Shown here piece by piece: positions 3,466-64,000 of a DNA stretch of 64,000 nucleotides. Numbering within the stretch: the first letter of the stretch is position 1; the number at the start of each line of letters is the position of its first letter. The notes beneath the pieces are model-generated. The model ran no database searches. It saw only the letters and a list, made by a program, of their open reading frames with translations, and was not told the DNA's origin. The DNA lies in assembly GCA_964400145.1 (NCBI GenBank), contig CAYNTF010000002.1, forward strand, positions 743 to 64,742. The letters are read 5' to 3'. The translations under genes were made by a program, and so were the position numbers. Source of the DNA: an uncultured Lachnospiraceae bacterium (lineage in GTDB: Bacteria > Bacillota > Clostridia > Christensenellales > UBA1242).

Positions 3466-3480
3466 TTTCTGCAAAAATAG

Positions 3481-3877: not shown

Positions 3878-3963
3878 GCCGAAGTGGCGGAATGGCAGAC
3901 GCACGGGACTCAAAATCCCGCGAGGGCAACTTCATGTGGGTTCGACTCCCACCTTCGGCACCA
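3878..3963 (+). tRNA. tRNA-Leu (anticodon CAA), long variable arm, CCA encoded
   Basis: Manual fold: acceptor GCCGAAG/CTTCGGC, anticodon stem CGGGA/TCCCG with loop CTCAAAA (CAA), ~16-nt variable arm, T arm GTGGG-TTCGACT-CCCAC, then A-CCA. 86 nt. ORFs 3816..4187 and 3892..4080 overlap it and are spurious. Confidence 0.95.
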
Positions 3964-3964
3964 A

Positions 3965-3990
3965 AGTCCGTAACAAATACGGATTTTTTT
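3965..3990 (+). terminator. rho-independent terminator after tRNA-Leu
   Basis: AGTCCGTA-acaaa-TACGGATT hairpin followed by T7 (3984-3990). Confidence 0.8.
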
Positions 3991-4130
3991 ATTTACAGTC
4001 AGACTTACCCCCCACGCATCAGATTTTCCTGTTTCCATGCGAGATTTCAAATCCTACGAATATTTTTTCACTTCTCATGATGCCAAAACGAAAAAATGAC
4101 CAATTTTGTCGAAAAAAATCTATATTTCAT

Positions 4131-4159
4131 TTGAAAAGATTTGAAATTTGTGATATAAT
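4131..4159 (+). promoter_or_regulatory. sigma-A promoter with extended -10 for the GT2/GT80-like pair
   Basis: TTGAAA (4131-4136), 17-nt spacer ending in TGA, TATAAT (4154-4159). GGAG SD and ATG at 4184/4187 follow. Confidence 0.7.
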
Positions 4160-4183
4160 AAATTTAACAATAATTTTGGAGTT

Positions 4184-5485: not shown

Positions 5486-5515
5486 AAAAAGATGTGATAA
5501 AAAAAGGAGAAAAAA

Positions 5516-45765: not shown

Positions 45766-45814
45766 AAAAGTTTCTCCTTTGTTTTTCTCAATTTTCACAA
45801 ACATTCATGTTCAC

Positions 45815-48800
45815 TCAACTTGAACTTGAATCTGCATTTGGGTTCAAAACACCCGAACTTCCAAAACTTCCAGCAGAGTTGACGGTTTCGCCAGAGTTCC
45901 AAGCAATGCCAAGATCTCTAGGCCACAAAGTGCGATAGGTTACTACATGCGAGAATATGTAACGAATTTGGACCTGCCCTCCTGCACCAGAATCTTCACC
46001 ATTTCCTGCACTACCGCCAGTGCCACCCAATCCACCATTATTTAAAGTAAGCCCTGAAAAATTATTATAAATATTATTCTTGATATGATTCATTGTTCCT
46101 GAATAACTATTAGCATCAAATGTAAAATCTCCAGCTAACTTATATGCCGTTCCATATAATTTAAGCCATGCATACTCCTTGTACCAATTAGTTTTTGTGA
46201 TAGCTAGATAGTAAAGGTTTAGAGCCTTACCATCTCCACCTTTTCCACCAGCACTAGTTCCGCCAGCGCCACCGCCACCGCCGGATGTATAAAAGTATCC
46301 GCCAGAATAAGTAGATGTTTCCGCTTCTTCAGGTTCAATTCCAATTGGGTCACTCCTGCTGCTAACAGGATCTCCAGCATATTCAGCTCCATAGCTTGAT
46401 GGATTCTCTAGTTCGTCAATACTATTACCATTGCTGATATAATAGTAATAATATCTTCCAAGACCGCCGATGCCGCCGTTGCCACCAAATTGAGTTTTTT
46501 CATCATCTTCATCATCTTCATCATCAAAATATGATGTTCTTGTGCTGTCTGTGCCGTCTGAATCTGCCACTGTCAATGTCCCTGCATCGCCATTGTCAAA
46601 TGTTCTACCGCCACCGCCACCACCGGTTACAGATCCATTACTAAAACTTCCATTAGCGCCATTTCCGCCATAACCACTTATTCCGCCAATTCCTGAACGA
46701 CAGAATGTCCCTTCAGATTGAACTTCAATGCTTCCGCCCTGTCCGCCTTGTTTACCTGCTCCACCATCAGAACCTGCAGTTGAACCATCTGAGCCATTTC
46801 CACCATTTCCGCCACTGCCAGCGATAATAATGTTATAACTTTCAAAAGTATCTGTCGATGATAAAGAATTTAAATCTGAAAGTATTCTCTCGACATCATT
46901 ACCAGCACTAGAAACAGACCCATCCTTACCATCCAAGCCATCGGCACCGTCAAGTCCATAGAGCGTAACACTGCTTTCCAAATTCGTAATCTTACCACTT
47001 CCAGAATTACGCAACACATAAGTGGTGCCACTATATGAGTAAATATTCCTGAATGTTCCGTAAACCTTGATGTTTGAAAGGCTTCCAGAATTGTTATAAA
47101 TCAAAAGTGCAGAATTGCGTGTCGATCTCGACGGCGATGCTGTGTCTTTCACACTTCCAACAACAACCAAATTGCTTATTGAAGCGGAATTGCTGTTGAA
47201 CAATCCACCAAAATTGTTACCGTCAACACTGTTGGAATATCTCAAAACATAATTATTTCCAATGTAATTTTTGTCATTTGCATCAAAGGAATAATCACCG
47301 ATTGAGATGTCATTTTTAAGCACAATATAGATGAAACTTCCGCTAGAATCACTTGATCCAGTTGTCTCATATAACCCCGACATTGTTTTTGGCTCTTCTG
47401 TGATTTTTAGTATCTCATATGTCACTTCTTCGTAAGGGGTATCTTCGTCATATGTTAATGTCGCACCACTTTCATCAACACTTGTATACGAAGATTCGCC
47501 GTCAACTCTGTAACTATAACTTGTTGTTTCGCTGTTTTTGAGCGTCTCACTTTCAGAATAACCTATGTTGAATGAAGATAATGTCAATGTATCGTCCGCT
47601 GGAATAGTTCCATTGGAAGTTAAGGTGTTATAATCATTTCTCGCAAAATAGATGTTCTTCTCATCATAGTCTGCAACAACCACATCAACAGAAATATCAT
47701 ACTCGCCCAACGATATTTTTTCAAAAACACTTAAATCAGTATTCAATGAAGAATCTTCTTCCCATGTAATCTCAATATCTTCAGATTCACCTATGATAGT
47801 TTCCCTGTATGAATATGCTTTCACACTATTATCGTAATAATCATACTTTTCTGCAGTTATAAAATACAGCTCGGTTCCAGTGGTTGCATTATACTGTAAT
47901 ACATAATACTCAACTGAAATTGCGCCACAAGAATATATGGTATATTCATATTGATATGCCACAGAAGCTGTTTCATCGTCGTTCCAATTTACCACCGACC
48001 AAGATGTCGTCACAGCAGTGCATTCTTCATCGCAGTATGAACAATCGACAACTTCTTCTTTTGTGACTGTATAATATTTTTTTGTTGCGCCATCTTCGCT
48101 TTCAACCGTCAATGACAAAGTGTCCAAGAATTTCCATTGTTCATTGACAGCCTCATCGTCACTTTCGTCACAACTATATTCATTCGAATTTAGAGTGATG
48201 CTCAGAGTATATCCGTTTTTAATATAATCTGAACTGATTGACAAACTGCCTGCCCCTTGCAAGAACGCGACGAGAGAGTCTCCGTCTTTAACTTGAATTT
48301 CATAACCTGTTCCTTCAGTGATGTTGAGTGTTCCACCTTCGAGTTTATAGGTGTATTCAACTTCATAAGTATAGAATTCAACTCCAAAATATGTGTCAGT
48401 TAAGACATTCACTTCTTCAGAATTTATGTCAGAGCCATAATATATCGCCACATTTTCTTCTACACCAAAATTTCCTGAGCCTGAAATATTATAATTTAGA
48501 GTATATCTCAAGTTTTCTTCAACACAATATTCAACACTGTTTGACAGAGCAGAAGTTTCAAACTCTCCCATAAGATTGTAATATACTGTCCAATCAAGCA
48601 TGTTATTAATGAATTCTTGCAGGTCGTCAGAAGTTGCAGAATCGGCAGTGATTGTCAAAACACCACTACTATCATCAACCGAAATACTGATTCCGTCATC
48701 AGCATCGTCCGACACCTTCCATTCTTCGCCATTATAAGTGACTGAATATGAGTCATTGCCAAACGCAAGTTTTGTGGTGCCATTAAGTTTCGAAAGAAGG

Positions 48801-51800
48801 TCTGACAAATCAAGTGTATAACTGTTGTCAGATGATTCAACAAACGAATCTGTCAAAATAAACCTAAGAGTGCCAGAAGAATATTCCTTAAATGTGACAA
48901 CATTATTGGTGTCTTCCAATGTCACTTCATAAGTTTTTGTTGTTGTCTTAACAGAAATGTCTGCATTCTCAGTCGTTGTTGTTGAAACATAGTTGATTAT
49001 AAGAGAATAACCGCCACCGCTGAACACATTCAAAAGGTTTTTTCCACCTTGTACTTGATCGCCAATCAAATAATATCCGTCAGTATCGTCATATTCCAAC
49101 TCAAACTCTAATGTAAGATCAGTAACATCATCATCACTTGATGTGCTTTGCAATGTGTAACTAATTTTATACTCATTCCAACTTTCCAAAAGTTCGTCAT
49201 CAATTTCGCTGTAATAATCAAGCAAAATCTTGATTTGACCATCTCCATAGTCAAAAACATTGTTCTTGGAGAGTGTGATAGTTCTCGAACTTTGATAAGA
49301 AACCGTCACTGTTGCAGTTAAATTTGACTGCGCTTCACCAAAATACGATGTTCCAGAAACTTTCAAAGTGCTGTCAGAATAACTTGTGGTAACACTTGTA
49401 TATTGCGCACTCACTTCCGCATTTGTTGAAGAATTACGCCAAGTTATTGTCACTTCGCTGTTGGCTTCGACAAAATCAGTGTCATCGATTGTAACTTCAA
49501 AATCAAAATCAATATAATAAGGCGCGATCGCACTGATCAGTCCTGATTTGTTCTTGACAATCGCTGCGCTTTGTCCATTGATTGTTGTTTCAACAAGGCT
49601 GTCACTGCTGTCTTCCACCATTTCGTCAATGTCAGAGATTTTTTCTTCAATCGTGGAAGGTTCTCCGTCAATTTCAACACCGTTGGTTCTGTCATATTCT
49701 GTTATATTCATTGAACCTTCACCAGCAACATAGCCAAGCAGACTGATGTCTTCCGAAGTTCCATCCAAAATACTCTCATATTGCACAAAAGAAACAGAAG
49801 AGTAGTATGTCGTGTCCGCAGCAAGGTAATAAACTAACTGAGAAACTTCAGTCACATTTACTACATAAGATTCATCAGATTCATCAGATTCATCATAGTA
49901 TGACTCAATTATTTGACCTAATAAAGAGTTTACAGTAGTATTGTTGCCGAAGCTATTTTGGTCATACAATATATTATTTTCTACATCATACACATTTGCG
50001 TATCTATTATTACTAGTACTATTATCTATTGTCGCAATCGCTGTGTTATAATCGACAGCATAGTATATCATTCTGCGGGTCATGGTGTCTTCAAGATAAA
50101 TTCTTGCAGGCATGCCGTATGCATCATAACCATTGATATAGAATTCTTCCAGGTCGCTTAAAGAGAACTTCCCTGTAACCATATTCTCGCCATTTAATGT
50201 ATATTGGTCAAGCATTGTTTTTCTGTCAAACTTCATATATTGCGTGTCTGAAACTTCACCTATGTTGCCATCATTTTTGATGTTGTCAGTTGATGTTGAG
50301 CAATCTTCAATACTACCATCCCCACCAATGAAACCAATGCCGTATGCATACACATGTCGATTTTCGCCGCCATTATATGTTATAGTGTATTTCACAATCA
50401 CACATTTAGGTTCTGGATTGTAGCCAGCGTCTGCCTCACCCGAAGTGACTTCGCCTTCAATTTCATACTTGGTTGTATCCATCTTCCCAATCGCTTCAAC
50501 AGCGCCGTCATTGATGCAACCTCTGACAGAGGTTCCACCTGTGCCATAGCCGAAAATTCCGCCAGCATAGTTATACGCGGAGTCATATTCACTTGAATAA
50601 TTCCCCGCACCAATCGTGCCGGTGTTGTATGAATTCTCTATTGTCGCACCAGCTGAATAACCAACAATTCCACCAGCCACAGAATTTGCATTAGTGTTAG
50701 CATTTGTATAATTCGCCAATACTGCATTTTCGTTATACGAATTATCCACAGTTGTGCCAGAAGATGCATAGCCCACAACACCACCTGCAATGAGATTAAA
50801 ACTATCTGACGACTCAGACCCAGTTATTTCACCATCGCTATTGATATATAAGAAAGACGCAGATGAAAGAGATGTACTTCCTGTTGCCACAATTTCTCCG
50901 GCATTGGAAGAATATGAAACTCTTCCCGATGTCAACTGTCCCACAACACCGCCAACAATTCCGACATTATTTGATGTGACATTGACAACGCCATAAACTG
51001 CTGTTGCATTTCCATTCAAAGTTCCAACAACGCCACCAGCCAAAGATGAAGAAGTTGACAATGACAAACTTCCAACAACAGTGATGTTGGTCAAATAGCC
51101 CACAAAAGTTGTGGCAAGCGTGCCTTGTGCACCAGAAACATTTATGTCATTCAATCTCAAATTCTCAATCGTTCCATACACAGTGTCAAACAACGGTGAT
51201 GTCAAATCAGTGAGACTTGAAAAATCAAGAGTGTGATTTGCGCCGTCGATTGTCAGGGTGTAAGAACTTGAACTTGAACTTGACCCAATGTTTTTATTTA
51301 TATACGAATTTGTATCCGAACTCAAATACTTAGAAGACATGTCGATGTCATACAAAATCACAAAATTCCAATCTTGATCATCTACCGAAGCTGAGCCTGT
51401 TTCTATCACATCAAGCATTTGCTGAAATTTTTGAGCATTTGGCACGCCCAGGAACCATTCTGACACATTTGCAGAAGTCAACACATCTAAATATGAAACT
51501 GCCGTATATTCATATTCTGTCACAACAGTTGAACCATCGTCCAAATCGTCAGGATTGCTGATTTTTCTCGTGTATGCGGTGACATTTTTGAGATAACCAA
51601 AGCCGTGCGAAGCATATCCATAGTTGACATATGGATTGAAATACCAAGTTGTGTATCCAGAACTACTGCTGTCCGGATTAATTTTTTGATCTGAGTATGC
51701 CTCCTTGTTGTAAGCAAGAGCCCATGTATCGGTTCTGGTATACAAATCAAAAGATGATCCTCGGCTATTAGAAACTTCAGCAAATTTCACACTAGGAGTC

Positions 51801-54800
51801 TCTGTATCTCCCGAGATTGATGTTAATTGAACATTTGCTATGGAATAACAATCCGTTAAAATTAAACTAGGCACTGCAGCAAAAGTGTAAACTTCGTTTG
51901 AGGTTGAAGTGTAATAAACTTCAATCAATCCAGCAGAATATGTGGATTTGATGGTACTTTCTTGCCACCAACCAGATGAAGAATTGTAATATAATGCAAT
52001 CCCTGCAACACCCGCATTATCACCATCTCCACCACGATATGTGATTGTGGCGTCAACATAACAGTCACTAATCATTCCGCCACACATATTACCAGCGATT
52101 CCAGCAAGTTTAAAACTTGAACCTTTACTTTTCACACCGACTGAAAGTTCACCCTTGACAGCAACACCATATATGAAGGAATTGTCATACATGTAACCAA
52201 CAACTCCGCCAAAATAATTTGAAGATATATCATATGATTGAATGTCCAACTCAATCACAAGTCCAGTGATTGCAGAGAAGTAAGCAAGGTCATACCTGTC
52301 ATATGTACCCATAGCATTAAACAAAGCGCCGGTTGCACTGGTTCTTTCTGATGAAAGGTCTGAATCGGAAATTGTTATCGTCTGTCCATTTCCAACAATC
52401 ACTGCATCGCTTAAAGTGCTGCCTGAACTCAACAATCCATCGATAGAAGTTGTCACAGCATACCACTTTATCAGTTCTGAAGTTGAAGTTGTTAAACTTT
52501 TTCCAGCCTCGCTAATTGTCAATGGATTGAGTTTTGACCCCAAAGCAAGGTCGCCACCAATGTTAAAATACTCCAAAATGTCAGTGCTGTACATAATATC
52601 TGAAGTGTCGGTTGTCTCAACCACTGTGGTGTATCCCATATAATCCACACTTGCGCCATATGGTGCATCCACATTTCCGCTTTCTTCTTGATACGCCATG
52701 CAAACACCAGAAGAATAATAATTGTCTTGATATTTCACAAGATCTGAATTTGCACCAACAACTGCTCCAACTTTATAATTTGATGTATCGTTGGTAACTT
52801 TTATATTAAAGTTGGTCATAAGGCTGTAAGAATTTGTTATATCAATGTAAGACGCCTTTCCAACAATTCCGCCGAAATTATATGTGTTAAGCGTATCATA
52901 TCTATCAGGATCATTGGTAGTAGATTCAGTTGTTTCTCGAGCGTTATAACAAATAAAAATATTTCCATAAGAATAGCAGTTTGAAATGGTGTAAGCCGAA
53001 GAAGATTCTGTTCCTATGACACTTTCATAATCGCCACTGTCCTCTTTGTCGACATCAAATTCTCCAACAATTCCACCAACGGTCAAACTTCCGCTATTAA
53101 GGTTATAGCCATATGCTTTCACTGCTCCGCCAAACACCGCTCTTTTGATTGTTATGCTGTTTTCACTGTTTTTGTAATCTGTTCTTGAAACATACCCAAA
53201 AACACCACCAAAAATCAGGGTTTTGATGTCAGAAATGACATTGCCTGTGTATTGAACATAGCCATATGAACTTTCGCTGTCGTTTATACTGATTGTGACT
53301 TCTGTGCTGTCACTTCCCACACTCTCTTCTTTGACTTGAACCCAACCAACAACGCCACCGACATATGCCGTACCGTAACCTTCATATGCTTTATACGTGC
53401 CGTCATTTTCATATCCCTTCACAGAGATGTTGATGGAATTATCGATTGAAGCATTCACTGTAAGCCCTTCATTAATTTTTCCAATAAGCCCACCAACCGA
53501 TATTATTCCATCGGAAGATGTAGATTCCGTAGACACACAAATGGCACCAGATATCTCTGAATCACCCGAAACATAAACAGTTCCACTCACAGAATATCCA
53601 ACAATTCCGCCTATGGCGTTGTCTTGACTGTCACCATTCACAATGAATGAATTTACGGTATATTCCTTATAATTTTTGTCAAATTCCGTGTCATCGGTGC
53701 CGTCTTCATTTGCAACAGTCAAGTCCACTGAGAAACTTTGAACGACGATGTTGCTGTTTGAATATCCAACAAGCCCGCCGATATAGACAGATTTTTTCAC
53801 TCTCGCACGGGTCGCTTGATATATCCCGCCTTTCAAAACGAATAAACTCACACCTTCAATGCTTGCTTGCGTGTTGTATATCGCACCGAAAGCAATTCCA
53901 GCATAGAGAGAGCCAACATTTTCACTTTGCAAAATTTTCATTCCGTTGCCACCCGATGAAGAATCAGAAACGCTGATTTGAGTGACACCGTTGATATACC
54001 CAGCCACACCGCCAACATACACAGTTTCACTTTCCGAGGCAATGTTCAACTGCACATCGTCAATGGTTGTGATATATAATGTCGACCTCATTGCGCCAGA
54101 TTTCACTATCGAACCTGCAAACACGCCGGCATAAAGCGTGACATTTGTGCTGCTCGATGTGTTTTTCAAATTTATCACAAGACCATCACCACTCTCGCTG
54201 ATGACACTCACGCCTTGAATTGTTGTGGAAGTGATTGCACTTTCTTGTTCAATATATCCAGCCAAAAGACCATAATACAACTCTTGCACGGTTGAACTTG
54301 AACTTGTTGTGAATGTGATTGAACTTTCATTTCTCGCCGTGAAAGATATGTTAACAAATGAAGTTGACTCTGCATGGTTTGTGATAAGCCCAGCAGCATA
54401 TCTGCCGTTTGAGTCTGAGCCGAAAGAAGTCGCTTCTATGGAAACATTGTTATTCAAAACTATGTTCACATCGCGTATCACCGAATCTTCAACGGTCTTA
54501 AACAAATTATAGTCGATAACATCGCTGCCAGATTCAACAAGATATATGTTCAGCCCTTGAATTGTTGCATTGCTTAAAAATTCAAACAAACTTTCATCCA
54601 AAATCAAACCAACATCCGATCCAGCGTCACCGCCCACAAGAGTTTTGCCAAGAGTTGTGTCATGATAGACTTCGTTGGTCACATAACCTTCTGCGTGTGA
54701 CTGAACATAGGCATAATACGAAATCAGAGTGCCACTGAATGTTGTTGATAGTGTTTTAAAGTTTGCACTTGCGGACCCTTGCGCTGAATCACTGGTCAAG

Positions 54801-57800: not shown

Positions 57801-60800
57801 TTGTCGCCAATGGTAAAGTTCACCACAATGCCGTTGGTGGTGTATTGAACCGATTGATTTTCGGACATATACGAAATGACTTCGCAGTTATATATAATTC
57901 CATTGTTTGTGATTGCAAAGCCCGCTATGTTTATGGTGCTGTAATCTTGAACATCGACATAAATCTGCCCACCTGAATATATGTTCACTCGAACATTTTT
58001 CAATGTGGTGTCTTCACTCACCGTATCAAACAATGCAAGTGATAGCGTGCTGGAATCTTCCGGATAAGCAAAACTGTTGATATGAATGGTGTATCCATTT
58101 CCGTCCAAACTTGAAACCAAATCGGTGTCGAGCGGTGTGTAGTCAGTCAACACTATGTCATTCATCAAGATGTAATCATCCGCTTCGTCCGAATTTGTGA
58201 GATAATCAACAAATTCTTCCGCTGTTGTGATTTGTGTTGGAATGTATTCATCTGAATAAACGCTGACAACCACATAGAAATAATAATCATACTCGTATGT
58301 GATGTTCGCATAGACAATCGTTGTTCGAAGTTTCATAAGTTGATAGCCCGTTCGTTTGCCCGTCAGTTGCAAGAGCGTTCGCCCAGAATTTTCGCTTTCA
58401 ATAATGTTGAAGTAGTCATTTTCTGTAATTGTTGAGCCGTTGTAGATTGAATGTGAAGTGCTGTCGCCCGAACTTGTAATACTTGTGACATAAGAAAGTT
58501 GTTGTTTGAGTGTCAGTCCTTGATCGTTGGAATAGTTGATATAATATCCTGAGTTTTCATCTGCGTAATAATTGTTTTGCTCAAATTGGCTTTGTTTTGC
58601 AAGCAATTCGTTGACTTTCGCCACTTCGCTTGGATTGGTGCTGTCATATATATAACTTTCTGGAATGATAGGATAGTTGAAGGACAAAATGTCAGTCGAA
58701 CCCAGATATAGATTGAAAACATCTGCTGTGAAACCATTATATGTCGCTTGTGCACCCGTTGAATTGACAGAGATGTTGTTGGCATCAACCGTGAAATCAA
58801 CAAGACAAACCGTTGCTTTGCTTTGTTTGATTTCCTGAGTGCCATTAATCACCCTTTGCACATCGGCGCAGATATAGAATATGCCGGTATCCTTTATGCC
58901 GGTATCGCCGCCACTTAACTCAGCATCAACATACGCCGTGACAGTGGCGGTGTAGACCTTCACATTGCCTTGCACTTCCATTGTCCAAGGAGAAATGTCA
59001 ATGTTTGCGCTGACATTGTTTGTGTAGAGATTATAAAGAGTTTGGTCAAGCCCAACTGTCACAGTTATGGTTGCCGAGTCACCTTTCGCCAAAAGGTGCG
59101 TGCTTTCGCCGTCCACCTTGACTTGTGCTTCTTGCAAATAGTTGACATTCAAATCGGTTGAGCCATAATAAATTTCGTTGTTATTTTGGTCATAGAAGTT
59201 GACTGTGATCTTGATGTCGCTGTCGATTGTGAAAGAACTTGAAACATAAACTCTGAAATAATACACGCCGTCGCCCTTTTTGTCGTCGTCAGTCAAGTTG
59301 ACTCTAAGTCCATTCGTTATAAATGTTGTGTTTGCTGAATTGATGTAATAACCATAAGTCCCAGAAGAAAGTCTGGAAATTGACAAAGTTCCAAGAGTGC
59401 CAGAAGTGGTGTCGCCTGTTGCAGAATATGTGATTGTGAAGTATGACATAAGCGCATACGCTGGGCTGACAGTCACCGCCACAATAACATCGCTGGACGG
59501 GCTTATGGTGTTCAAAATTGCGTCCGAAATTGTGTAATATGTCACATTTCTCACACTTGACCTGCTGGCAATCGAATATGTGTGAATTGATACATCATTA
59601 ACTGACTGCGTTTCAAGATTAAGTGTGACATCAACCGACGGACTGCCACTTGCCATTTGACTGAGTGGAGTGACCGTGAGTGTCATGCCATAATAATTTT
59701 CTTCAACAAGATGCAAACAACTGTCATCAACTTTGACAACAACATGATAAAGCTGTTCGTCATCACTTGCCCCCTTACTTTTCGACCAAGTCACCTTGAT
59801 GAGAAGGTCACTTTCAAGTTTGAAGTATGCCACAGATGTGTCTTTGTCAAATGTCAGTGCATCGCCATTTTCGTCGACAACTTCCAAAGTTATGTCGCCA
59901 TAAGTGAGAGCGAAAGTGAGATTGTCATTACTGTTGTCAGTTGTCAGTTTGAAATCAAACTCTGCATATTGTGACGCAGTGAATGTGACATTTTGAGAAT
60001 TTTGCAATTCCAAAGTGCGCGCGCCATCATATATCGTCACATTGAAACTCTTTTTGGTTTTTTCATTGATAACGGAATTATAAGTTTCGCTCAACCCACT
60101 CAATGTGATGAAAGATGAAATTTCAATATCATCTCCATTTACTTTCAACCCTTCCAAAAAGATGTTGGAGCTGTTCTTGGAAATCGAGATATAAACGCCA
60201 ATATCATCAGTATATGATATGTCAAAAGTATAGTCATTTTCTGTTGTATACATTGTTCCATTGAGAGAAATTCGGCTGTCCAAATTGTTGACAATCTGGC
60301 TTGAACTGCCCGTTTGAAGCAAAATGGTGCTTCCGTCTGAAATTGTGTTGTCATTTAAGGTCAAGTTGAGTGACGGCAAATTGTTTAGCACAACAAATGT
60401 GAATGTTTTGGATGAAGTGAAGTCCATTTTGGAATATACCGTCACTTCAAACGCTGTGGTTGACACGCCATTCAACAACAAATCATTGGTGTTGATTGAA
60501 ACCAACGAAGAAGTTGTGGAAAGCAGAAGCGTTCTTGCCTGTTTTGAACTTGAAAGATTGAACAAATCAACATATGAAATTGTGTTGCGCGCAGTCAAAG
60601 CCGACTCTTCCGCCGAAGTGTTTGTGCTTTGCGTCAAACTTGTGTAGAACAAAATTCCACTTGTTGAATCAACGGCAAGCGCTTGGATGTAACTTTCTTC
60701 AATGTCATTTATCACCAAAGTTCTGATATCAACAGCAATGGTTTGAGTGATTGCAGAAAGATAGACAAATCCAAAGTTGACATCTTCGTCAATCTCACTT

Positions 60801-63800
60801 GTCACCCAAATGGATGAGTTAAGCCCTTGAAGCAATGTCTCCCAAGAACTAACTCCCGATGCTGAAACTGAAACACCATCCGAATTTTTTGTGATAGTCA
60901 CATTAATATATGAATTGTTGTAACTTGCAGAAAGCATCTGCATTGTCAATGTTGAACTGCTGCAATAGAGATAATACGAATTGGAAAAAGTAATTGTGCC
61001 TGAACCCATGTGTGTTGTCGACAAACTTCCCAAGAAAGCAAAACTTTGGTCAATCGTGTTCTCGCCGTTTGAATAGCCCACAAACAATGAAACAGAGCTC
61101 ATTCCATTCAAAATTGACGAATAGTCATCGCCACCATCGGTCAAATCGGTCAAAGGATATGCATAGACATAGGAAGTGGAAATTGAACTTTCCGACTCTG
61201 CTTGTCCAACAATTCCGCCGAAATAGGTGTTGCCTGCGCCCGTTATGGTGTTATAACCGCTTTCGAATTTATAGAATTCCACACCTGAGCCAGAAATTGT
61301 TCCCGAATTTTGTCCAACAAGTCCGCCAATATATGTTGCATTTGTTGCCGAAATAGTCAACCCCAAAACAAACGAATTTGTGATTTTTCCCGTGTTTGAA
61401 CCAACAAGTCCGCCAACATAGGTTCCTGACCCTGTTGTCGTCGTGAGCGTGCTGTAGGAATATCCATTTGAAGAATAGTAGACATCCACATACACATTTT
61501 CGATTGTGCCACTGTTCTCATCAGCAACAAATCCAGAATATGCTGAAGTTGTTGTCACTTGTCCTGCAAAAGTCAAGTTTTTGATTGTTCCTTTGTTTGT
61601 TGTCACAAAATTGTCGCTTGAACCTGTGAAAGTGAGCGTGATGGTTTCATCAGCACCAAAAATCATTCCAGAAAGTTCGGAAAAACTTGTCCAATTATTG
61701 AGTGTAAGGTTGTTCATGATTTGATAATATTTTGCTGTGTTTATGGCTTTAAGTTCGTCAACGCTGTAAATTCTCAATGCGGTTTCTTCTGTCAAACCGT
61801 CAGCAACGGTCACCTTAATTCTCAAAAAGATTTGCGAATAATAAATTTTTTCGCCGTCATTATTGAGAAAATATGTGGCAACATTACCGTATGAAGCACT
61901 GTCAGTTCCATCACTGATTAAATAATCATAGTAATACGGCAAATCTTCCCAATCTATATATGTTGGTGTTTCTTCAACGATATTTCCGTCACTGTCTGTC
62001 GAATAGATATACAGCAAAATTTTTGTTTCCCCATCCACAGACTTAATCATGTCGGTCGGCAAGATATAGAGATATCCCACCCCACCTGTTTCGGTGTTGT
62101 TCACAATGCTTAAATTGAAAGTTTCGCCACTGCCCTGCTGAACGATATTCAAAAACCCACTGTTTCCAGATGTTGGAAGGAAATAGTAACTCAAAGTCTT
62201 GTCATTCGCGTCAGACGGAGAGATGACAGTTGAAATTGTCGCCGTTTTGTCGTTTGTGTTGGAAGAAGTCAAGTCAAGATAAATCTCATCGCCTTCTGTG
62301 CTGTTTGTCCAAGTGACACTTTCAACGCGGTTCACATTGCGAATTTGAATTGTGATTTGCGTCGAGCGAGTCAGTCCGTTCGGGTCAGTGTATGTTATTG
62401 TCAAAACATCTTCAAAATATGTTTGCAAATTGGTGGAATTGGCTGTGATTGTGAATTTCAAATATCTTCCCGAATTGGTGTATTGCACATTGCTTATGGT
62501 GTAATAATTGTTTGACAGCACTTGATCTGATGTTGTCACATAAGCCCCCGATGTTAACACTGTCGCGTTCGAAAGTGCATCTTGCGCCGAAGTGAAAGTG
62601 AAATATTCCAAACTGTCCGTGTAGGTCGGTGTTTTGATGTCCGATCTAAACGACAAAGTTATGTCAACATACGAAAGCGACAAATCTGAAATCGAAAGTG
62701 TTTCGGTTGTGTATAACAATTTTTCGCGAATGCTTGGAGAGATATAAGAAACGGAATAGAAACTTTCAATCGCAAAAATTCTGACAATCAGCACTTCATC
62801 GTGATTGACATCATAACCACTGAAAGTTGCAAGAATATAGCCTTTAAAAACATTTTCTGTCAAAGTCAGTCTGCTTTCGGTTATAGAGAAATAGGAATTG
62901 TAAGCATCGACAGAACTGAAACTTGTGTATAGATTGTTCAAAACATATTCCAAATTATCATTATTGAAAATTTCAAGTGCCCTCGCCTGAGCCTCTTCTG
63001 CTGTGCCCCCTTCCGTATTTTGAATGTAATCCACCAAACTATCAAACGAAAGGTATGAGAACGAAATTCCATTATTTGACAAAGTTTGATATTCACTTAT
63101 CAAAGGCAAAATCGCCCCCGCCTCAATCAAAAGATGTGAAAGGCTGGTGTTGGAAATGGTCGAACTTGTTGAAACAGAGTTGTTCTCTGCGACATAACTT
63201 TGAGTGGAAGTGCGACTTATGAACACATTTGTGGAAGAAGCATTTCCGTTTGAAATGGATACGGATGTCACAGGCATAAACGCTGAAACAGTGAACTGCG
63301 CTGTGGTTTTTCCGGTCACATGTTCAAACCAAAAGTTTGTTTCCGATTCAAAATCTTTTCCATTTATTGTGACAGTGAAAGTGAAAATGACATAAGTGTT
63401 TGAACTAGACGATGAAGAACTAAGTGTCGTTAAGGAAGAGAATGTGAAAAGTTCATTTCCATCGCTGACAAGTTCAAGTCCGCTTATGGACGATATGCCA
63501 GAGATTTTGAGAGTATATGTGGCAGTGTTTGAAGACAAGTTTGTGGATATGTATTGTGTTTCAACTTCCGTAGATTCCCCTGTTTCAACGTCATAACTTT
63601 CAACATTCAACTCGCCGTCGGTGATTTTATACAAATTCAATGTCAAGGATGCACTCACCGCCGATGTACTGCAAGAAACAAAATTAATTACAACTCCTGT
63701 CAAGTCTTGCACCAAACTACTGCTTGCCAGAATGTAGACACTTGCATTGTTGCTTATTGCATCAGTTTTATAGATTATGTCACCGTTTACGCCACTTAAA

Positions 63801-64000
63801 TTGTAGGTTATATTTCCAACATAAATAGTGAAATAGTCCGAAACATCCCCACTGAAATTTGAGATTTGGCTGGTGTCAAGAGAGATGTAGAACATGCTGT
63901 CATCCAAAGCCACTTCGGTTGGCTCAACCAAGACCTTGACAAGATAGCCGTTGCTGTTTTCATAACTTGAAAAAACATCAATTTCGTTGCCATTAAGCGT
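45815..64000 (-). CDS. giant GLUG-repeat surface protein GP2, at least 6,061 codons, 5' end beyond the window
   Basis: The M at 63931 in the ORF track is a TTG codon. My translation of 63932-64000 in the same frame (TLNGNEIDVFSSYENSNGYLVKV) has no stop, so the ORF is open to the window edge. Many GLUG-like units (YVGGLVGSNTGKITNSFV, YIGGLVGQNSGTISGSGV, VAGGIVGYSAGATIENSYNTG, YAGGIFGYGTGGTSVRGCIN, YVGGLVGYMGGGFISVAYS) are preceded by entry modules of the I.T.EEF....Y.L.NDI.L....F.G.LDGNG.TI type. Glycine-rich C-terminal ~380 aa. Confidence 0.8.
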   Translation of the reverse strand, partial: TLNGNEIDVFSSYENSNGYLVKVLVEPTEVALDDSMFYISLDTSQISNFSGDVSDYFTIYVGNITYNLSGVNGDIIYKTDAISNNASVYILASSSLVQDLTGVVINFVSCSTSAVSASLTLNLYKITDGELNVESYDVETGESTEVETQYISTNLSSNTATYTLKISGISSISGLELVSDGNELFTFSSLTTLSSSSSSSNTYVIFTFTVTINGKDFESETNFWFEHVTGKTTAQFTVSAFMPVTSVSISNGNASSTNVFISRTSTQSYVAENNSVSTSSTISNTSLSHLLIEAGAILPLISEYQTLSNNGISFSYLSFDSLVDYIQNTEGGTAEEAQARALEIFNNDNLEYVLNNLYTSFSSVDAYNSYFSITESRLTLTENVFKGYILATFSGYDVNHDEVLIVRIFAIESFYSVSYISPSIREKLLYTTETLSISDLSLSYVDITLSFRSDIKTPTYTDSLEYFTFTSAQDALSNATVLTSGAYVTTSDQVLSNNYYTISNVQYTNSGRYLKFTITANSTNLQTYFEDVLTITYTDPNGLTRSTQITIQIRNVNRVESVTWTNSTEGDEIYLDLTSSNTNDKTATISTVISPSDANDKTLSYYFLPTSGNSGFLNIVQQGSGETFNLSIVNNTETGGVGYLYILPTDMIKSVDGETKILLYIYSTDSDGNIVEETPTYIDWEDLPYYYDYLISDGTDSASYGNVATYFLNNDGEKIYYSQIFLRIKVTVADGLTEETALRIYSVDELKAINTAKYYQIMNNLTLNNWTSFSELSGMIFGADETITLTFTGSSDNFVTTNKGTIKNLTFAGQVTTTSAYSGFVADENSGTIENVYVDVYYSSNGYSYSTLTTTTGSGTYVGGLVGSNTGKITNSFVLGLTISATNATYIGGLVGQNSGTISGSGVEFYKFESGYNTITGAGNTYFGGIVGQAESESSISTSYVYAYPLTDLTDGGDDYSSILNGMSSVSLFVGYSNGENTIDQSFAFLGSLSTTHMGSGTITFSNSYYLYCSSSTLTMQMLSASYNNSYINVTITKNSDGVSVSASGVSSWETLLQGLNSSIWVTSEIDEDVNFGFVYLSAITQTIAVDIRTLVINDIEESYIQALAVDSTSGILFYTSLTQSTNTSAEESALTARNTISYVDLFNLSSSKQARTLLLSTTSSLVSINTNDLLLNGVSTTAFEVTVYSKMDFTSSKTFTFVVLNNLPSLNLTLNDNTISDGSTILLQTGSSSQIVNNLDSRISLNGTMYTTENDYTFDISYTDDIGVYISISKNSSNIFLEGLKVNGDDIEISSFITLSGLSETYNSVINEKTKKSFNVTIYDGARTLELQNSQNVTFTASQYAEFDFKLTTDNSNDNLTFALTYGDITLEVVDENGDALTFDKDTSVAYFKLESDLLIKVTWSKSKGASDDEQLYHVVVKVDDSCLHLVEENYYGMTLTVTPLSQMASGSPSVDVTLNLETQSVNDVSIHTYSIASRSSVRNVTYYTISDAILNTISPSSDVIVAVTVSPAYALMSYFTITYSATGDTTSGTLGTLSISRLSSGTYGYYINSANTTFITNGLRVNLTDDDKKGDGVYYFRVYVSSSFTIDSDIKITVNFYDQNNNEIYYGSTDLNVNYLQEAQVKVDGESTHLLAKGDSATITVTVGLDQTLYNLYTNNVSANIDISPWTMEVQGNVKVYTATVTAYVDAELSGGDTGIKDTGIFYICADVQRVINGTQEIKQSKATVCLVDFTVDANNISVNSTGAQATYNGFTADVFNLYLGSTDILSFNYPIIPESYIYDSTNPSEVAKVNELLAKQSQFEQNNYYADENSGYYINYSNDQGLTLKQQLSYVTSITSSGDSTSHSIYNGSTITENDYFNIIESENSGRTLLQLTGKRTGYQLMKLRTTIVYANITYEYDYYFYVVVSVYSDEYIPTQITTAEEFVDYLTNSDEADDYILMNDIVLTDYTPLDTDLVSSLDGNGYTIHINSFAYPEDSSTLSLALFDTVSEDTTLKNVRVNIYSGGQIYVDVQDYSTINIAGFAITNNGIIYNCEVISYMSENQSVQYTTNGIVVNFTIGDNTDSVLLTEQQISQYNLSINIAGFVCENTASITNSRVGGDSYREIVTVGSSTYLQSKSLGTFTIVGQGNVSGFVGTNSGSVSASFAKSLQIYNQTKSTTSQTAGFVMTNSGNVQGSYVESVGDGEDVQNQKTNLSTMGIAAGFVYTNSGLVKNSYSNIAIANDETYKPYLASGFVYINQSSGQITLCYSASYVDTTDGYQMPFTGVDAQLNSLNEGTITKSYYFNSGTEDNTNQSSITTGVTAVNSLSIKNTPEDDLYGFTFASSEDAYDGIWTTTSNGITLVSANQIAFSNRYAVTVNNMTYIYYTSSILEASTLELIDISYGSINNPIILRDAYDFAVATGDATSTPISAYQAYYSDTSVFGNYRVVNDIDMSEIDLDISGDGAVKLTTTEKTFTGLLDGNGFTISNINLRSDEELENFGLFAKLNGAVIMNVNFTVGLINDTNASIVGALAGTAVDSKLVAISVSPLSSEEDISVTGYNIVGGVVGMIFGASEMHDITASNMVIESTYNGTKYVGANDDLTGDTLRGYVSTGLKAYVSALSYAGALVGYVDIYDTQIPDYVRYDNSLEVSDFGITTVYVTDSVDIYGQVVGGLFGYVGESTYIFDAGLELDANMSGDNPSYITSKNLYAGGLIGENYGGLFAVYATYSEDLQSQIESSEYSYYNSSSSVERGQQNIFSYKKNIGTDNEDGDNVLYVGGLVGYMGGGFISVAYSKINVISDTAEAVGGIIGLAGNVGNSYELTFTNNTSNINIFLYDVYASGDLYTTSENGISGGIIGAIRSDSGNIPIIALKDVMAMNYYSVEQAIVDNASQTVLSGGEHYMLIGKIYSYGEDGKTEIEELNNRLYILDSSSDYFDVYTSTSTSVGYSSNTVGGYSNVIVSGSQIDLAGYFGFSNDASTVSSSILQATSIGSLSSMDLAYVRFNSYFLENDWQSQYWEHTQSTLFPYIDLTSNLDTIYWDVYNTEEVLAAIENNPSITVIVRGRVSESENNAEWSDIDLTSDSAQGSASANFKTLSTTFSGTLISYYAYVQSHAEGYVTNEVYHDTTLGKTLVGGDAGSDVGLILDESLFEFLSNATIQGLNIYLVESGSDVIDYNLFKTVEDSVIRDVNIVLNNNVSIEATSFGSDSNGRYAAGLITNHAESTSFVNISFTARNESSITFTTSSSSTVQELYYGLLAGYIEQESAITSTTIQGVSVISESGDGLVINLKNTSSSTNVTLYAGVFAGSIVKSGAMRSTLYITTIDDVQLNIASESETVYVGGVAGYINGVTQISVSDSSSGGNGMKILQSENVGSLYAGIAFGAIYNTQASIEGVSLFVLKGGIYQATRARVKKSVYIGGLVGYSNSNIVVQSFSVDLTVANEDGTDDTEFDKNYKEYTVNSFIVNGDSQDNAIGGIVGYSVSGTVYVSGDSEISGAICVSTESTSSDGIISVGGLIGKINEGLTVNASIDNSINISVKGYENDGTYKAYEGYGTAYVGGVVGWVQVKEESVGSDSTEVTISINDSESSYGYVQYTGNVISDIKTLIFGGVFGYVSRTDYKNSENSITIKRAVFGGAVKAYGYNLNSGSLTVGGIVGEFDVDKEDSGDYESVIGTESSSAYTISNCYSYGNIFICYNARETTESTTNDPDRYDTLNTYNFGGIVGKASYIDITNSYSLMTNFNIKVTNDTSNYKVGAVVGANSDLVKYQDNYYSSGVCMAYQEESGNVDAPYGASVDYMGYTTVVETTDTSDIMYSTDILEYFNIGGDLALGSKLNPLTISEAGKSLTTSTSELIKWYAVTTSIDGLLSSGSTLSDAVIVGNGQTITISDSDLSSERTSATGALFNAMGTYDRYDLAYFSAITGLVIELDIQSYDISSNYFGGVVGYMYDNSFIYGVAVKGELSVGVKSKGSSFKLAGIAGNMCGGMISDCYVDATITYRGGDGDNAGVAGIALYYNSSSGWWQESTIKSTYSAGLIEVYYTSTSNEVYTFAAVPSLILTDCYSIANVQLTSISGDTETPSVKFAEVSNSRGSSFDLYTRTDTWALAYNKEAYSDQKINPDSSSSGYTTWYFNPYVNYGYASHGFGYLKNVTAYTRKISNPDDLDDGSTVVTEYEYTAVSYLDVLTSANVSEWFLGVPNAQKFQQMLDVIETGSASVDDQDWNFVILYDIDMSSKYLSSDTNSYINKNIGSSSSSSSYTLTIDGANHTLDFSSLTDLTSPLFDTVYGTIENLRLNDINVSGAQGTLATTFVGYLTNITVVGSLSLSTSSSLAGGVVGTLNGNATAVYGVVNVTSNNVGIVGGVVGQLTSGRVSYSSNAGEIVATGSTSLSSASFLYINSDGEITGSESSDSFNLIAGGVVGYASSGTTVDNSYNENAVLANYTNANTNANSVAGGIVGYSAGATIENSYNTGTIGAGNYSSEYDSAYNYAGGIFGYGTGGTSVRGCINDGAVEAIGKMDTTKYEIEGEVTSGEADAGYNPEPKCVIVKYTITYNGGENRHVYAYGIGFIGGDGSIEDCSTSTDNIKNDGNIGEVSDTQYMKFDRKTMLDQYTLNGENMVTGKFSLSDLEEFYINGYDAYGMPARIYLEDTMTRRMIYYAVDYNTAIATIDNSTSNNRYANVYDVENNILYDQNSFGNNTTVNSLLGQIIESYYDESDESDESYVVNVTEVSQLVYYLAADTTYYSSVSFVQYESILDGTSEDISLLGYVAGEGSMNITEYDRTNGVEIDGEPSTIEEKISDIDEMVEDSSDSLVETTINGQSAAIVKNKSGLISAIAPYYIDFDFEVTIDDTDFVEANSEVTITWRNSSTNAEVSAQYTSVTTSYSDSTLKVSGTSYFGEAQSNLTATVTVSYQSSRTITLSKNNVFDYGDGQIKILLDYYSEIDDELLESWNEYKISYTLQSTSSDDDVTDLTLEFELEYDDTDGYYLIGDQVQGGKNLLNVFSGGGYSLIINYVSTTTTENADISVKTTTKTYEVTLEDTNNVVTFKEYSSGTLRFILTDSFVESSDNSYTLDLSDLLSKLNGTTKLAFGNDSYSVTYNGEEWKVSDDADDGISISVDDSSGVLTITADSATSDDLQEFINNMLDWTVYYNLMGEFETSALSNSVEYCVEENLRYTLNYNISGSGNFGVEENVAIYYGSDINSEEVNVLTDTYFGVEFYTYEVEYTYKLEGGTLNITEGTGYEIQVKDGDSLVAFLQGAGSLSISSDYIKNGYTLSITLNSNEYSCDESDDEAVNEQWKFLDTLSLTVESEDGATKKYYTVTKEEVVDCSYCDEECTAVTTSWSVVNWNDDETASVAYQYEYTIYSCGAISVEYYVLQYNATTGTELYFITAEKYDYYDNSVKAYSYRETIIGESEDIEITWEEDSSLNTDLSVFEKISLGEYDISVDVVVADYDEKNIYFARNDYNTLTSNGTIPADDTLTLSSFNIGYSESETLKNSETTSYSYRVDGESSYTSVDESGATLTYDEDTPYEEVTYEILKITEEPKTMSGLYETTGSSDSSGSFIYIVLKNDISIGDYSFDANDKNYIGNNYVLRYSNSVDGNNFGGLFNSNSASISNLVVVGSVKDTASPSRSTRNSALLIYNNSGSLSNIKVYGTFRNIYSYSGTTYVLRNSGSGKITNLESSVTLYGLDGADGLDGKDGSVSSAGNDVERILSDLNSLSSTDTFESYNIIIAGSGGNGGNGSDGSTAGSDGGAGKQGGQGGSIEVQSEGTFCRSGIGGISGYGGNGANGSFSNGSVTGGGGGGRTFDNGDAGTLTVADSDGTDSTRTSYFDDEDDEDDEKTQFGGNGGIGGLGRYYYYYISNGNSIDELENPSSYGAEYAGDPVSSRSDPIGIEPEEAETSTYSGGYFYTSGGGGGAGGTSAGGKGGDGKALNLYYLAITKTNWYKEYAWLKLYGTAYKLAGDFTFDANSYSGTMNHIKNNIYNNFSGLTLNNGGLGGTGGSAGNGEDSGAGGQVQIRYIFSHVVTYRTLWPRDLGIAWNSGETVNSAGSFGSSGVLNPNADSSSS
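46500..46526. repeat. in-frame 9-bp tandem repeat (TCATCATCT x2 plus TCATCATCA) encoding DDEDDEDDE in GP2
   Basis: Read directly at 46500-46526. Confidence 0.9.
49869..49895. repeat. in-frame perfect 9-bp tandem repeat (GATTCATCA x3) encoding DESDESDES in GP2
   Basis: Read directly at 49869-49895. Protein context YYDESDESDESYVV. Confidence 0.9.

Follow-up and report, generated by a model that had tools for sequence, protein, structure and literature searches.

GP2, which lies at the edge of the 64,000-nucleotide stretch of DNA that we analysed (the window), is on its sequence a real, intact chromosomal gene for a pre-lipoprotein of 6,449 amino acids. The encoded protein probably has a lipid at its N-terminus that holds it to the membrane, and we consider it moderately likely, by analogy with other giant surface proteins, that it is a surface fibre serving adhesion or contact, with a binding domain at its distal end.

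The visible coding part comprises 6,061 sense codons on the minus strand, ending in a TGA stop codon at 45815-45817 with the frame still open at position 64000. The probability of such a stop-free frame arising from base composition is about 1e-182, while the other two frames on the same strand contain 295 and 500 stops. Genetic code 4 was rejected, as TGA is used as the stop and never occurs in frame. Codon count and open frame agree with the initial annotation, which had described a single ORF of at least 6,061 codons open at the window edge, had correctly treated the TTG start listed at 63931 as internal and had noted, again correctly, that the gene shares its strand with rpoB/rpoC and uvrA/uvrB; all of the peptide strings that it quoted are present in the GP2 translation. 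Since GP2 is on the minus strand, the part missing at 64000 is the N-terminus, as the initial annotation had taken it to be although it gave no strand. The complete protein (P0006, 6,449 aa, from a gene of 19.3 kb) ends exactly with the window translation at an offset of 388, and its first 388 residues fall outside the window, past 64000.

45815-64000, minus strand: visible GP2 coding sequence, residues 389-6449 of the 6,449-aa protein
61793-64000, minus strand: N-proximal region, residues 389-1124 of the full protein, with no detectable domain, colinear in all orthologs at 28-53% identity

Whether a signal peptide or lipobox would be found at the true N-terminus had been left as a check, and both are present: the protein begins with a Sec signal peptide and a lipobox, MKKITLGILSVLMVVGGLFLFTG directly preceding C24, with a lipobox also found in 7 of the 7 orthologs whose 5′ end is visible. 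The signal-peptide region used in testing for lipoprotein membership, MKKITLGILSVLMVVGGLFLFTGC, with its positively charged n-region and hydrophobic h-region ahead of the lipobox Cys, places GP2 among the predicted lipoproteins, and its lipobox passes PS51257-like and G+LPPv2 patterns. The GP2 lipobox, FTGC, is non-classical in having Phe at -3; at the aligned position the orthologs carry the classical LSAC, LTAC or LAAC. The signal peptide is the sole hydrophobic segment in 6,449 aa. The C-terminus is polar (...NPNADSSSS) and lacks an LPXTG sortase signal with hydrophobic segment and basic tail, the only LPXTG-like string being internal at residue 996, and Pfam searches found no SLH or other wall-binding domains. 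The mature protein is predicted to be 6,426 aa and 694 kDa with a very acidic pI of 4.05.

Colinear orthologs with 35-44% identity were identified in at least nine other independent assemblies, always positioned between spoIIID and radC-uvrBA within the conserved order M23 peptidase - spoIIID - GP2 - radC - uvrB - uvrA. The relatives of GP2 come from Clostridia MAGs and metagenomes, and its host lineage, itself within Clostridia, is known mainly from MAGs. Word-indexed protein searches returned one match for the N-terminal 1,000 aa, none for the C-terminal 562 aa and four for M3, one of the modules described below. A second giant lipoprotein in the same region, GP1, is a GP2 paralog, residues 2017-3117 of which align with residues 1421-2617 of the GP2 window translation at 27% identity.

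Several relatives are short or split in the databases (P0001, 1,054 aa; P0008, 1,682 aa; P0009, 293 aa; P0014, whose entry has a 2,175-aa neighbour and is an apparent split version), as would be expected if GP2 were a pseudogene or an assembly artefact, such as a chimera or a repeat collapse or expansion, from which no 6,449-aa product is made. We regard this as extremely improbable. Fragments in L010 and L011 adjoin runs of N at scaffold gaps, and the open frame of L009 borders directly on an unrelated, truncated gene. P0001 was rejected as a true short homolog, as L003 leaves the 98.6%-identical L005 abruptly just before the stop; P0009 as a stand-alone C-terminal domain and L011 as a split gene were both rejected on account of an N-run at the junction. 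In contrast to these fragments, the orthologs in L001/L006, L002, L004, L005, L007 and L008 are conserved in protein sequence and run to the locus edge without a stop, over 3,006 to about 4,765 codons, colinear with GP2 and with no module gained or lost; L011 is colinear from residue 2684 through the stop. Independent assemblies with stops or frameshifts had been named as the observation that would overturn a single reading frame, and the short versions prove to sit at gaps or abrupt contig junctions. The GP2 DNA contains no repeat longer than 42 nt, those present being 62-81% identical, and no repeats able to cause assembly collapse were found in it. At the protein level self-BLASTP gave no internal match at E ≤ 1e-3, near-identical tandem repeat units (the criterion for tandem-repeat giant adhesins such as Ebh, SRRP and RTX/BIg) are absent, and the GGxGxD string is present just twice.

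Upstream of the GP2 orthologs in L002, L005, L007 and L008 are a conserved sigma-70-type promoter and a conserved, strong ribosome-binding site, which suggests vegetative expression from a predicted promoter of its own. The neighbouring gene was found downstream of GP2 in 4 of the 4 loci that show the 3′ end:

44944-45804, minus strand: radC-like gene with a JAB domain, its start separated from the GP2 stop by 10 nt

No terminator-like site is present from the GP2 end until 43869-43852, and radC and GP2 are probably co-transcribed.

Identifiable sequence families within GP2 are confined to GLUG modules. Our own unit HMM detected 26 strict GLUG units in five clusters, to which one AGF-variant cluster was added by eye. 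Profile-profile comparison of the modules (hhalign) supported five, left one marginal (30%) and gave no support to a seventh, and the count of at least eight modules in the initial annotation could not be reproduced, although its observation of a recurring entry segment ahead of the modules was correct.

60965-61792, minus strand: M1 GLUG module, residues 1125-1400, with entry segment RIYSVDELKAINTAKYYQIMNNLTL and three GLUG units
57125-58252, minus strand: M2 module, residues 2305-2680, with entry segment ITTAEEFVDYL...ILMNDIVL and AGF-variant GLUG units
55295-56842, minus strand: M3 module, residues 2775-3290, with entry segment NPIILRDAYDFAVA...LDGNGFTISN and eight GLUG units
52685-54937, minus strand: M4 module, residues 3410-4160, longest of the modules, containing nine or more GLUG units
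51815-52552, minus strand: M5 candidate module, residues 4205-4450, with one strict GLUG unit and a best hhalign match of 30% (to M4)
50390-51382, minus strand: M6 module, residues 4595-4925, with entry segment WNFVILYDIDMS...IDGANHTLDF and five GLUG units
46925-47392, minus strand: GLUG-like cap seen by eye, residues 5925-6080 (...NNFGGLFNSNSASISNLVVVG...), not backed by profile comparison

The five mutually homologous modules make up 35% of GP2 (hhalign M1 to M2 94.5%, M1 to M6 94.2%, M3 to M4 96.4%). Long GP2 queries scored only 17 bits against Pfam Glug (PF07581), below threshold, and tiles were needed; M1 tiles scored 30.3 and 31.1 bits against a cut-off of 20.5, with M6 falling just under it at 19.2 bits. 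Conservation among the orthologs peaks at the module entry caps and is lower in the distal half; of all 100-aa windows in the protein, the one at the M2 entry cap is the best conserved (69%).

An AlphaFold2 model of M3, the sole GLUG module modelled, matches a right-handed beta-helix, with a pTM of 0.67 and an all-beta core at pLDDT 70-90, although the mean pLDDT is only 56.5. Foldseek searches of the PDB with this model returned IgA1 proteases at the top (probability 0.99-1.0), followed by tailspikes and pectate lyases; the TM-scores are low (0.1-0.33), though all of the top matches are beta-helices, and matches in BFVD were likewise beta-helix proteins. Ortholog profiles of M1 and M3 gave nothing usable against PDB sequences and no IgA1 protease sequence. 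P0003, a distant sequence relative of M3, carries Peptidase_M26_N. GP2 was itself considered as an M26 IgA1-specific metallopeptidase (ZmpA/B/C) and rejected, there being no HExxH motif in the whole 6,449 aa and no Peptidase_M26 match.

IgA1 proteases apart, nearly all of the fold matches to M3 are carbohydrate-active right-handed beta-helices, including tailspikes, PL6 alginate lyases, a fucoidan lyase, polygalacturonase and members of the pectate-lyase superfamily. The modules might then constitute a surface-tethered glycan-active array that binds or cleaves polysaccharide of plants, mucin or the capsules of neighbouring cells, so that GP2 would harvest or remodel polysaccharide rather than merely adhere, on the model of pectate lyases, alginate lyases and phage tailspike depolymerases; the origin of its relatives in Clostridia MAGs and metagenomes would fit such a role. 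However no CAZy-type or lyase Pfam family was detected anywhere in GP2, tiles included, the closest fold match (NTD2 of IgA1 protease) is a non-catalytic gating domain (PMC9637739), conservation is highest in the entry caps and not in a groove, and the TM-scores are too low for active-site transfer. We judge a glycan-active role to be improbable.

The remaining 65% of GP2 has no match in Pfam, the PDB or GP2 itself. The N-terminal 1,130 aa belong to no Pfam or PDB family, whether searched as single sequences or as a profile of seven orthologs, and the suggestion that some of the spacers read like Ig-like strands found no support in Pfam or PDB searches. Secretin_N, CGDB, FlgD_tudor, Mannosidase_ig and CBM_6 appeared as sub-threshold Pfam matches, each in one tile or ortholog only, and were set aside.

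58253-60964, minus strand: spacer between M1 and M2, residues 1401-2304, with no domain or internal repeat, part of it paralogous to GP1
47393-50389, minus strand: acidic region, residues 4926-5924, 17-23% Asp+Glu, with no domain and a CxxCxxxC cluster

In P0008/L009 and L011 the acidic region has colinear counterparts, 10-25% identical. The composition of the whole protein, with 23% Ser+Thr, a richness in Asn and 99 N-x-S/T sequons in addition to its extreme acidity, is compatible with a structural or protective part of the envelope, for instance a coat resembling mucin, or a spacer layer, with no specific ligand (compare halomucin and giant proteins associated with S-layers). The paralogous giant lipoprotein GP1 in the same region, the constitutive appearance of the GP2 promoter and the vertical inheritance of GP2 at a core locus would all suit a coat of this kind. 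Against this, GP2 is non-repetitive, strictly colinear and furnished with a discrete, conserved terminal domain, an architecture which argues for a defined molecular machine over a bulk coat, and the lack of SLH or other wall-binding domains in it also tells against such a coat, which we therefore consider fairly unlikely.

The C-terminal ~365 aa is, as judged from its sequence and that of its relatives, a discrete, conserved orphan domain.

45818-46912, minus strand: C-terminal glycine-rich domain, residues 6085-6449 (~365 aa)
46547-46831, minus strand: conserved core of the C-terminal domain, residues 6112-6206 (IIIAGSGGNGGNGSDG...GGQGGSIEV...GIGGISGYGGNGANG)

This domain is shared with P0007/P0014, P0008 and P0009, the alignment having 27 invariant columns, mostly Gly, and nowhere in the distal third of GP2 is conservation higher than in its core. 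Glycines recur at a lag of three residues in all five members (p ≤ 0.0014; counts 3-5 SD above shuffles), which suggests that they form polyglycine-II helices. AlphaFold2 prediction from a four-sequence alignment gave a pLDDT of 32. A collagen-like triple helix was rejected, as the longest regular runs amount to 4-5 triplets (GLDGADGLDGKDG; GIGGISGYGGNGANG) broken by strands. No relatives were detected in Pfam (E ≤ 10, with no glycine-rich family matched at that level), the PDB (phmmer and profile), PHROGs, viral contigs or JGI metagenome contigs; designed PPR proteins returned as PDB matches were dismissed as spurious sums of tiny repeat scores. The initial annotation had recognised no enzymatic domain, toxin tip or cell-wall anchor in GP2. 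Searches indeed gave no enzymatic domain and no sortase motif, and the signal peptide is the only hydrophobic segment, but the annotation, in recognising no tip, had overlooked this domain.

A giant filamentous stalk ending in a distinct C-terminal domain, with a distal third that evolves fast, recalls polymorphic toxins and contact-dependent delivery proteins, in which the stalk would present a toxic domain to neighbouring cells. The C-terminal core is however conserved and not a swappable cassette, every locus that shows the 3′ end has radC downstream instead of a variable immunity gene, and searches of GP2 for toxin, Rhs, LXG and pre-toxin domains were negative. The protein is moreover lipid-anchored at the opposite end with no recognisable release site, and we consider toxin delivery very improbable.

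An N-terminally lipid-anchored contact fibre remains our preferred reading of GP2. Since searches of GP2 revealed no domain from any known binding or adhesion family, its adhesive function is proposed from architecture and analogy only; proteins with GLUG motifs and giant proteins of Clostridia are usually read as mediating adhesion (PMC9723798; bioRxiv 10.1101/2023.11.21.568195). GP2 would be made vegetatively from a promoter of its own that also serves the downstream radC, and after export would be processed by Lgt and signal peptidase II, the chain being held at the outer face of the cytoplasmic membrane via diacylglyceryl-Cys24. The membrane-proximal ~1,100 aa may span the wall, beyond which rigid beta-helix modules alternating with beta-rich spacers would form a long stalk, ~100 nm if extended (a rough estimate). 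At its distal end this stalk would carry the ligand-binding part, made up of the acidic region and the glycine-rich C-terminal domain; the latter would probably be a polyglycine-II helix bundle.

GP2 has been kept intact at one site across species only 35-44% identical, despite its 19.3 kb in a small-genome, low-GC lineage, and such retention implies that the cell bears a large cost. If GP2 is the main contact organelle of these bacteria, it would give access to the means by which an uncultured lineage attaches itself to surfaces or cells. About two thirds of the protein, the conserved terminal domain included, falls outside the families and structure libraries searched and may contain new folds. 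The locus also carries a warning for annotation, in that public assemblies and gene calls break GP2 orthologs, where scaffolds have gaps or contigs join abruptly, into pieces of 293-2,175 aa posing as independent proteins. More tentatively, and as a possible rather than a likely outcome, the C-terminal ~365 aa could be an undescribed cellular polyglycine-II domain, acting as the ligand-recognising tip of a ~0.7-MDa lipid-tethered fibre, with GP1 and GP2 together forming an N-anchored giant-adhesin family particular to a lineage of gut Clostridia; if so, ~4,000 residues without detectable homology would hold several new folds.

Among known systems, Ebh/Embp and the serine-rich-repeat adhesins resemble GP2 in being very large, acidic, Ser/Thr-rich and presumed to project as fibres. 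The beta-solenoid binding region of the L. reuteri SRRP (PDB 5NY0) ranked 34 among the beta-helix fold matches to M3. Ebh/Embp and SRRP consist of near-identical tandem repeats and have a C-terminal anchor (LPXTG or a C-terminal membrane segment), whereas GP2 is non-repetitive in both DNA and protein and carries an N-terminal lipobox anchor. With GP2 anchored N-terminally, its polarity would be reversed relative to these adhesins and its C-terminus would be distal.

The best fold match to M3 is NTD2 of the M26 IgA1 metalloproteases of Streptococcus pneumoniae and Gemella haemolysans (PDB 6XJB, 7UVL, 7UVK), a domain which is itself a beta-helix (PMC9637739) and has the GLUG motif (PF07581) in common with GP2. 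GP2 has five or six GLUG modules, putatively beta-helical, in place of the one in these proteases and, in contrast to them, has no HExxH, M26 Pfam or catalytic domains, G5 or LPXTG. The giant proteins that West-Roberts et al. reported from gut Clostridia (bioRxiv 10.1101/2023.11.21.568195) come from the same bacterial class as GP2 and are likewise presumed to act in adhesion. They have 10,000-30,000 aa or more and consist of identifiable repeats, namely RCC1, Listeria-Bacteroides repeat, YG and dockerin (bioRxiv 10.1101/2023.11.21.568195), whereas 65% of the 6,449 aa of GP2 is without a family and GP2 has a lipoprotein anchor.

Polyglycine-II bundles are known from the phage S16 gp38 tail-fibre adhesin, the snow-flea antifreeze protein and the Obg N-domain (reviewed in PMC8409303), and the GP2 C-terminal core is like them in its short Gly-rich runs and three-residue periodicity. 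There is no sequence match between the two, and the likeness is a lead from periodicity, not from fold. As with gp38, the GP2 domain is placed, in our proposal, at the distal end of a fibre, and a polyglycine-II tip, if true, would give bacteria an independently evolved counterpart to the glycine-rich tip found on tail-fibre adhesins of T-even phages.

The giant gene GP2 lies on the minus strand. Its frame covers 64000-45818 with 6,061 sense codons and is closed by TGA at 45815-45817. This agrees with the initial annotation, which had described a single long ORF still open at the window edge (64000); the local base composition predicts one stop per ~15 codons and a probability of ~1e-182 for 6,061 codons lacking any, and the other two same-strand frames contain 295 and 500 stops across GP2. 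The TTG start of the ORF track (63931) is indeed internal, all of the peptides quoted from the translation are found in it, and GP2 shares the strand of rpoB, rpoC, uvrA and uvrB as had been stated. Because GP2 is on the minus strand and open at the edge, the absent portion is the N-terminus. An exhaustive HMMER search using the last 1,200 GP2 residues as query retrieved the complete protein, P0006, of 6,449 aa. The window translation matches its final 6,061 residues exactly, placing 388 codons (1,164 nt) outside the window. P0006 is encoded on a 234-kb NCBI contig; neither it nor RpoB of the source genome clusters with another protein at 90% identity. The protein begins with MKKITLGILSVLMVVGGLFLFTG followed by C, a predicted signal peptide with a lipobox, so that the complete sequence appears to carry both of the N-terminal elements raised as a question in the initial annotation. 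The signal peptide is the sole hydrophobic segment in the entire protein, and the predicted mature chain comprises 6,426 aa (694 kDa, pI 4.05).

Relatives of GP2 were drawn from species-representative genomes and metagenome contigs. Loci containing the 5′ end of the gene include L001/L006 (a MAG labelled uncultured Catabacter sp.), L002 (Clostridiales bacterium SIG414) and the further loci L004, L005 (a 266-kb contig), L007 and L008. These share the protein start MK/RKFA.GILS...L.AC, and none of their frames is closed within the fetched DNA (3,006 to about 4,765 codons). Their products align colinearly with GP2 residues 1 to about 4,530-4,780 (35-44% identity), or to 2,929 in the shorter locus L002, with no module gained or lost across them. 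The 3′ end is visible in L009, L010 and L011, where the giant gene is followed by radC, small ORFs, uvrB and uvrA, the arrangement of the window, and the upstream order in L002 and L003 is M23 peptidase - spoIIID - giant gene, with spoIIID immediately upstream of the giant gene and, in L003, a small acyl-carrier-protein gene between the M23 peptidase and spoIIID. Across species, GP2 and its orthologs are strictly colinear and the chromosomal locus is fixed.

Where database proteins of this family are short or split, the cause is an artefact or an unresolved junction. In L011, ten N (about 6500-6510) stand between two ORFs that are colinear across the gap with GP2 2684-6449, and a 293-aa 'protein' in L010 begins directly after a ~100-N gap (about 1770-1890). 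L003 (protein P0001, 1,054 aa) follows L005 at 98.6% identity until just ahead of the P0001 stop, where it diverges, with an abrupt junction at 5778 to an unrelated Aldedh gene fragment, while the frame of L009 extends open upstream of the called Met into GLUG units and adjoins a truncated phosphatase fragment (His_Phos_1) at about 930. A pseudogene or assembly artefact was rejected given the open colinear orthologs, the absence of DNA repeats >42 nt within the GP2 gene and the position of the fragments at gaps and junctions, and we regard an artefact as scarcely credible. The 'proteins' that the broken assemblies (L003, L009, L010 and L011) yield measure 293 to 2,175 aa and resemble independent short homologs; L003 and L009 come from ENA assemblies with neighbouring accessions, ERZ16268042 and ERZ16268089.

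A near-consensus TTGACT-N17/18-TATAAT sequence is kept in L002, L005, L007 and L008 ~50 nt ahead of a GGAGG RBS and ATG (promoter and RBS at about 8690-8767 in L002, 8759-8836 in L005 and equivalent positions in L007 and L008), with the remainder of the upstream region divergent around it. This is the phylogenetic footprint of a predicted sigma-70-type promoter and points to expression of the giant gene from its own promoter. At the other end radC begins 10 nt past the GP2 stop, the corresponding gap being 9-26 nt in L009, L010 and L011. No terminator-like site occurs on the GP2 strand before 43869-43852, so GP2, radC and the 128-aa ORF are probably co-transcribed. The features of the window outside GP2 include:

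44944-45804, minus, RadC-like JAB-domain paralog adjoining GP2, an adjacency kept in L009, L010 and L011
43932-44318, 32250-32912 and 34957-35619, minus, three ORFs of 128-220 aa without a Pfam match
36743-37459, plus, second RadC-like JAB-domain paralog, between fructose-bisphosphate aldolase and metallo-beta-lactamase-fold genes
29190-31880, minus, VirB4/TraG-like P-loop ATPase of 896 aa (PF19044, DUF87, AAA_10)
18723-29111, minus, GP1, a giant gene of about 3,462 aa
3627-3699 and 3878-3960, plus, two tRNA genes (Rfam RF00005)

The second RadC-like paralog has the same position in L009, and both L009 and L010 have small ORFs between radC and uvrB, at the position of the 128-aa ORF. GP1 is a predicted lipoprotein (MAKILKNVLISVLGAFMFMFAGVFIAGC) that shares with GP2 a paralogous stretch of ~1,200 aa at 27% identity; its C-terminal end is a GLUG module and, unlike GP2, it has no Gly-rich C-terminal domain. 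Tiles of GP1 gave no Pfam match. The ATPase gene ends directly upstream of GP1, with which it is probably co-transcribed, and nothing else nearby was recognised as a conjugation or type IV secretion gene. Rfam matched no RNA families in the window other than the two tRNAs. Core housekeeping genes make up what remains of the window, including alanine racemase, a GT2 glycosyltransferase, GatA/GatB, RpoB/RpoC, HflX and a class II aldolase.

Long GP2 queries gave almost no matches in Pfam and NCBIfam. On tiles, the Pfam GLUG motif passed its threshold of 20.5 bits in module M1 (30-31 bits) and fell narrowly below it in M6, and a unit HMM built from GP2 itself identified 26 GLUG units in five clusters, with an additional sixth cluster of A-G-F variant units recognised by eye. 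Seven candidate modules (M1-M7, N- to C-terminal) were bounded by the previously noted entry segments and their ortholog profiles compared with hhalign. Probabilities were 96.4% for M3 with M4, 94.5% for M1 with M2, 94.2% for M1 with M6, 75.6% for M1 with M4 and 74.9% for M4 with M6. M5 is marginal (30% with its best partner, M4) and M7 has no support, reducing the 'at least eight' GLUG modules of the initial annotation to five supported ones, which span 2,250 aa (35% of GP2). The other 65% has no Pfam match; the inter-module spacers, the acidic region and the C-terminus matched neither any module nor each other by hhalign, and profiles of the C-terminal domain and of the first 1,130 aa found no real match among PDB sequences. 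The best-conserved 100-residue windows across orthologs are the entry caps (55%, 69% and 57% identity in M1, M2 and M3), and in the distal half identity falls to 25-35%. GP2 contains 26 Cys in its 6,449 aa. One cluster within the acidic region, CSYCDEEC (CxxCxxxC; window 47855-47878, full residues 5708-5715), could form a small metal-binding knuckle; the L009 ortholog keeps part of it as CPRC.

AlphaFold2 modelling of M3, from a 6-row alignment including four distant matches and the GP1 paralog, produced a core made up entirely of short, regular beta-strands (core pLDDT 70-90, pTM 0.67); the unmodelled tail lowers the mean pLDDT to 56.5. The best PDB matches to the model are the S. pneumoniae and G. 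haemolysans IgA1 metalloproteases (probability 0.99-1.0), in which the NTD2 domain is a beta-helix gating the active site (PMC9637739). Many further matches are right-handed parallel beta-helices, including phage tailspikes, alginate, pectate and fucoidan lyases and an SRRP adhesin, and a viral structure library likewise gave beta-helix matches. Since TM-scores are low (0.1-0.33) and ortholog profiles found no match among PDB sequences, we describe these as beta-helix modules of GLUG type and not as members of a protease family; HExxH and M26 domains are absent from GP2. The model suggests that M3 folds as a beta-helix, a fold which homology would extend to the other four supported modules. 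With lyases among these matches, GP2 could be a glycan-active beta-helix array, which we consider unlikely.

The last ~365 residues of GP2 align with the C-termini of P0007/P0014, P0008 and P0009, the 3′ ends of orthologous genes, with 27 invariant columns, mostly Gly, in the pattern I.I.G.G.NG..G...G..G..G..G.I...G..G..G.G..G.NG...G..G....GR. This core is a conservation peak (31-44% identity vs 10-25% over the rest of the distal third). Its Gly residues are in excess at lags 3 and 6 over composition-matched shuffles in all five sequences (3-5 SD, p<=0.0014), which is a sequence signature of three-residue-per-turn helices. As the Gly runs are short, at 4-5 triplets, and split by strands, a polyglycine-II bundle is favoured over a collagen triple helix, and the domain may form such a bundle, of a kind that occurs in the phage S16 tail-fibre adhesin, snow-flea antifreeze protein and Obg (reviewed in PMC8409303). 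Its AlphaFold2 model has a pLDDT of 32. Searches of Pfam, the PDB, PHROGs, viral contigs and JGI metagenome contigs gave no relative of the domain.

GP2 would be exported and lipidated at Cys24, its lipidated N-terminus holding it on the outer face of the membrane, with rigid beta-helix modules and spacers forming a long stalk and the C-terminal domain the distal, ligand-binding end. An adhesive or contact fibre is our best reading, at slightly better than even confidence, by comparison with other proteins that are giant or carry GLUG motifs (PMC9723798; bioRxiv 10.1101/2023.11.21.568195). A protective coat without specificity is doubtful, and toxin delivery is highly improbable. Assignment of GP2 as an M26 protease, LPXTG protein, tandem-repeat adhesin or polymorphic toxin was rejected, each failing a tested defining feature.

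As an adhesive or contact fibre GP2 would be likened in its working to giant surface adhesins, with modules of the GLUG beta-helix type, and its proposed polarity is the reverse of that of sortase-anchored Gram-positive adhesins. The known giant proteins of gut Clostridia are larger than GP2 and built of recognisable repeats (bioRxiv 10.1101/2023.11.21.568195). What is new in GP2 is about 4,000 residues without a detectable family, an orphan conserved Gly-rich terminal domain, and the combination of a predicted N-terminal lipid anchor with a non-repetitive 6.4-kaa chain.
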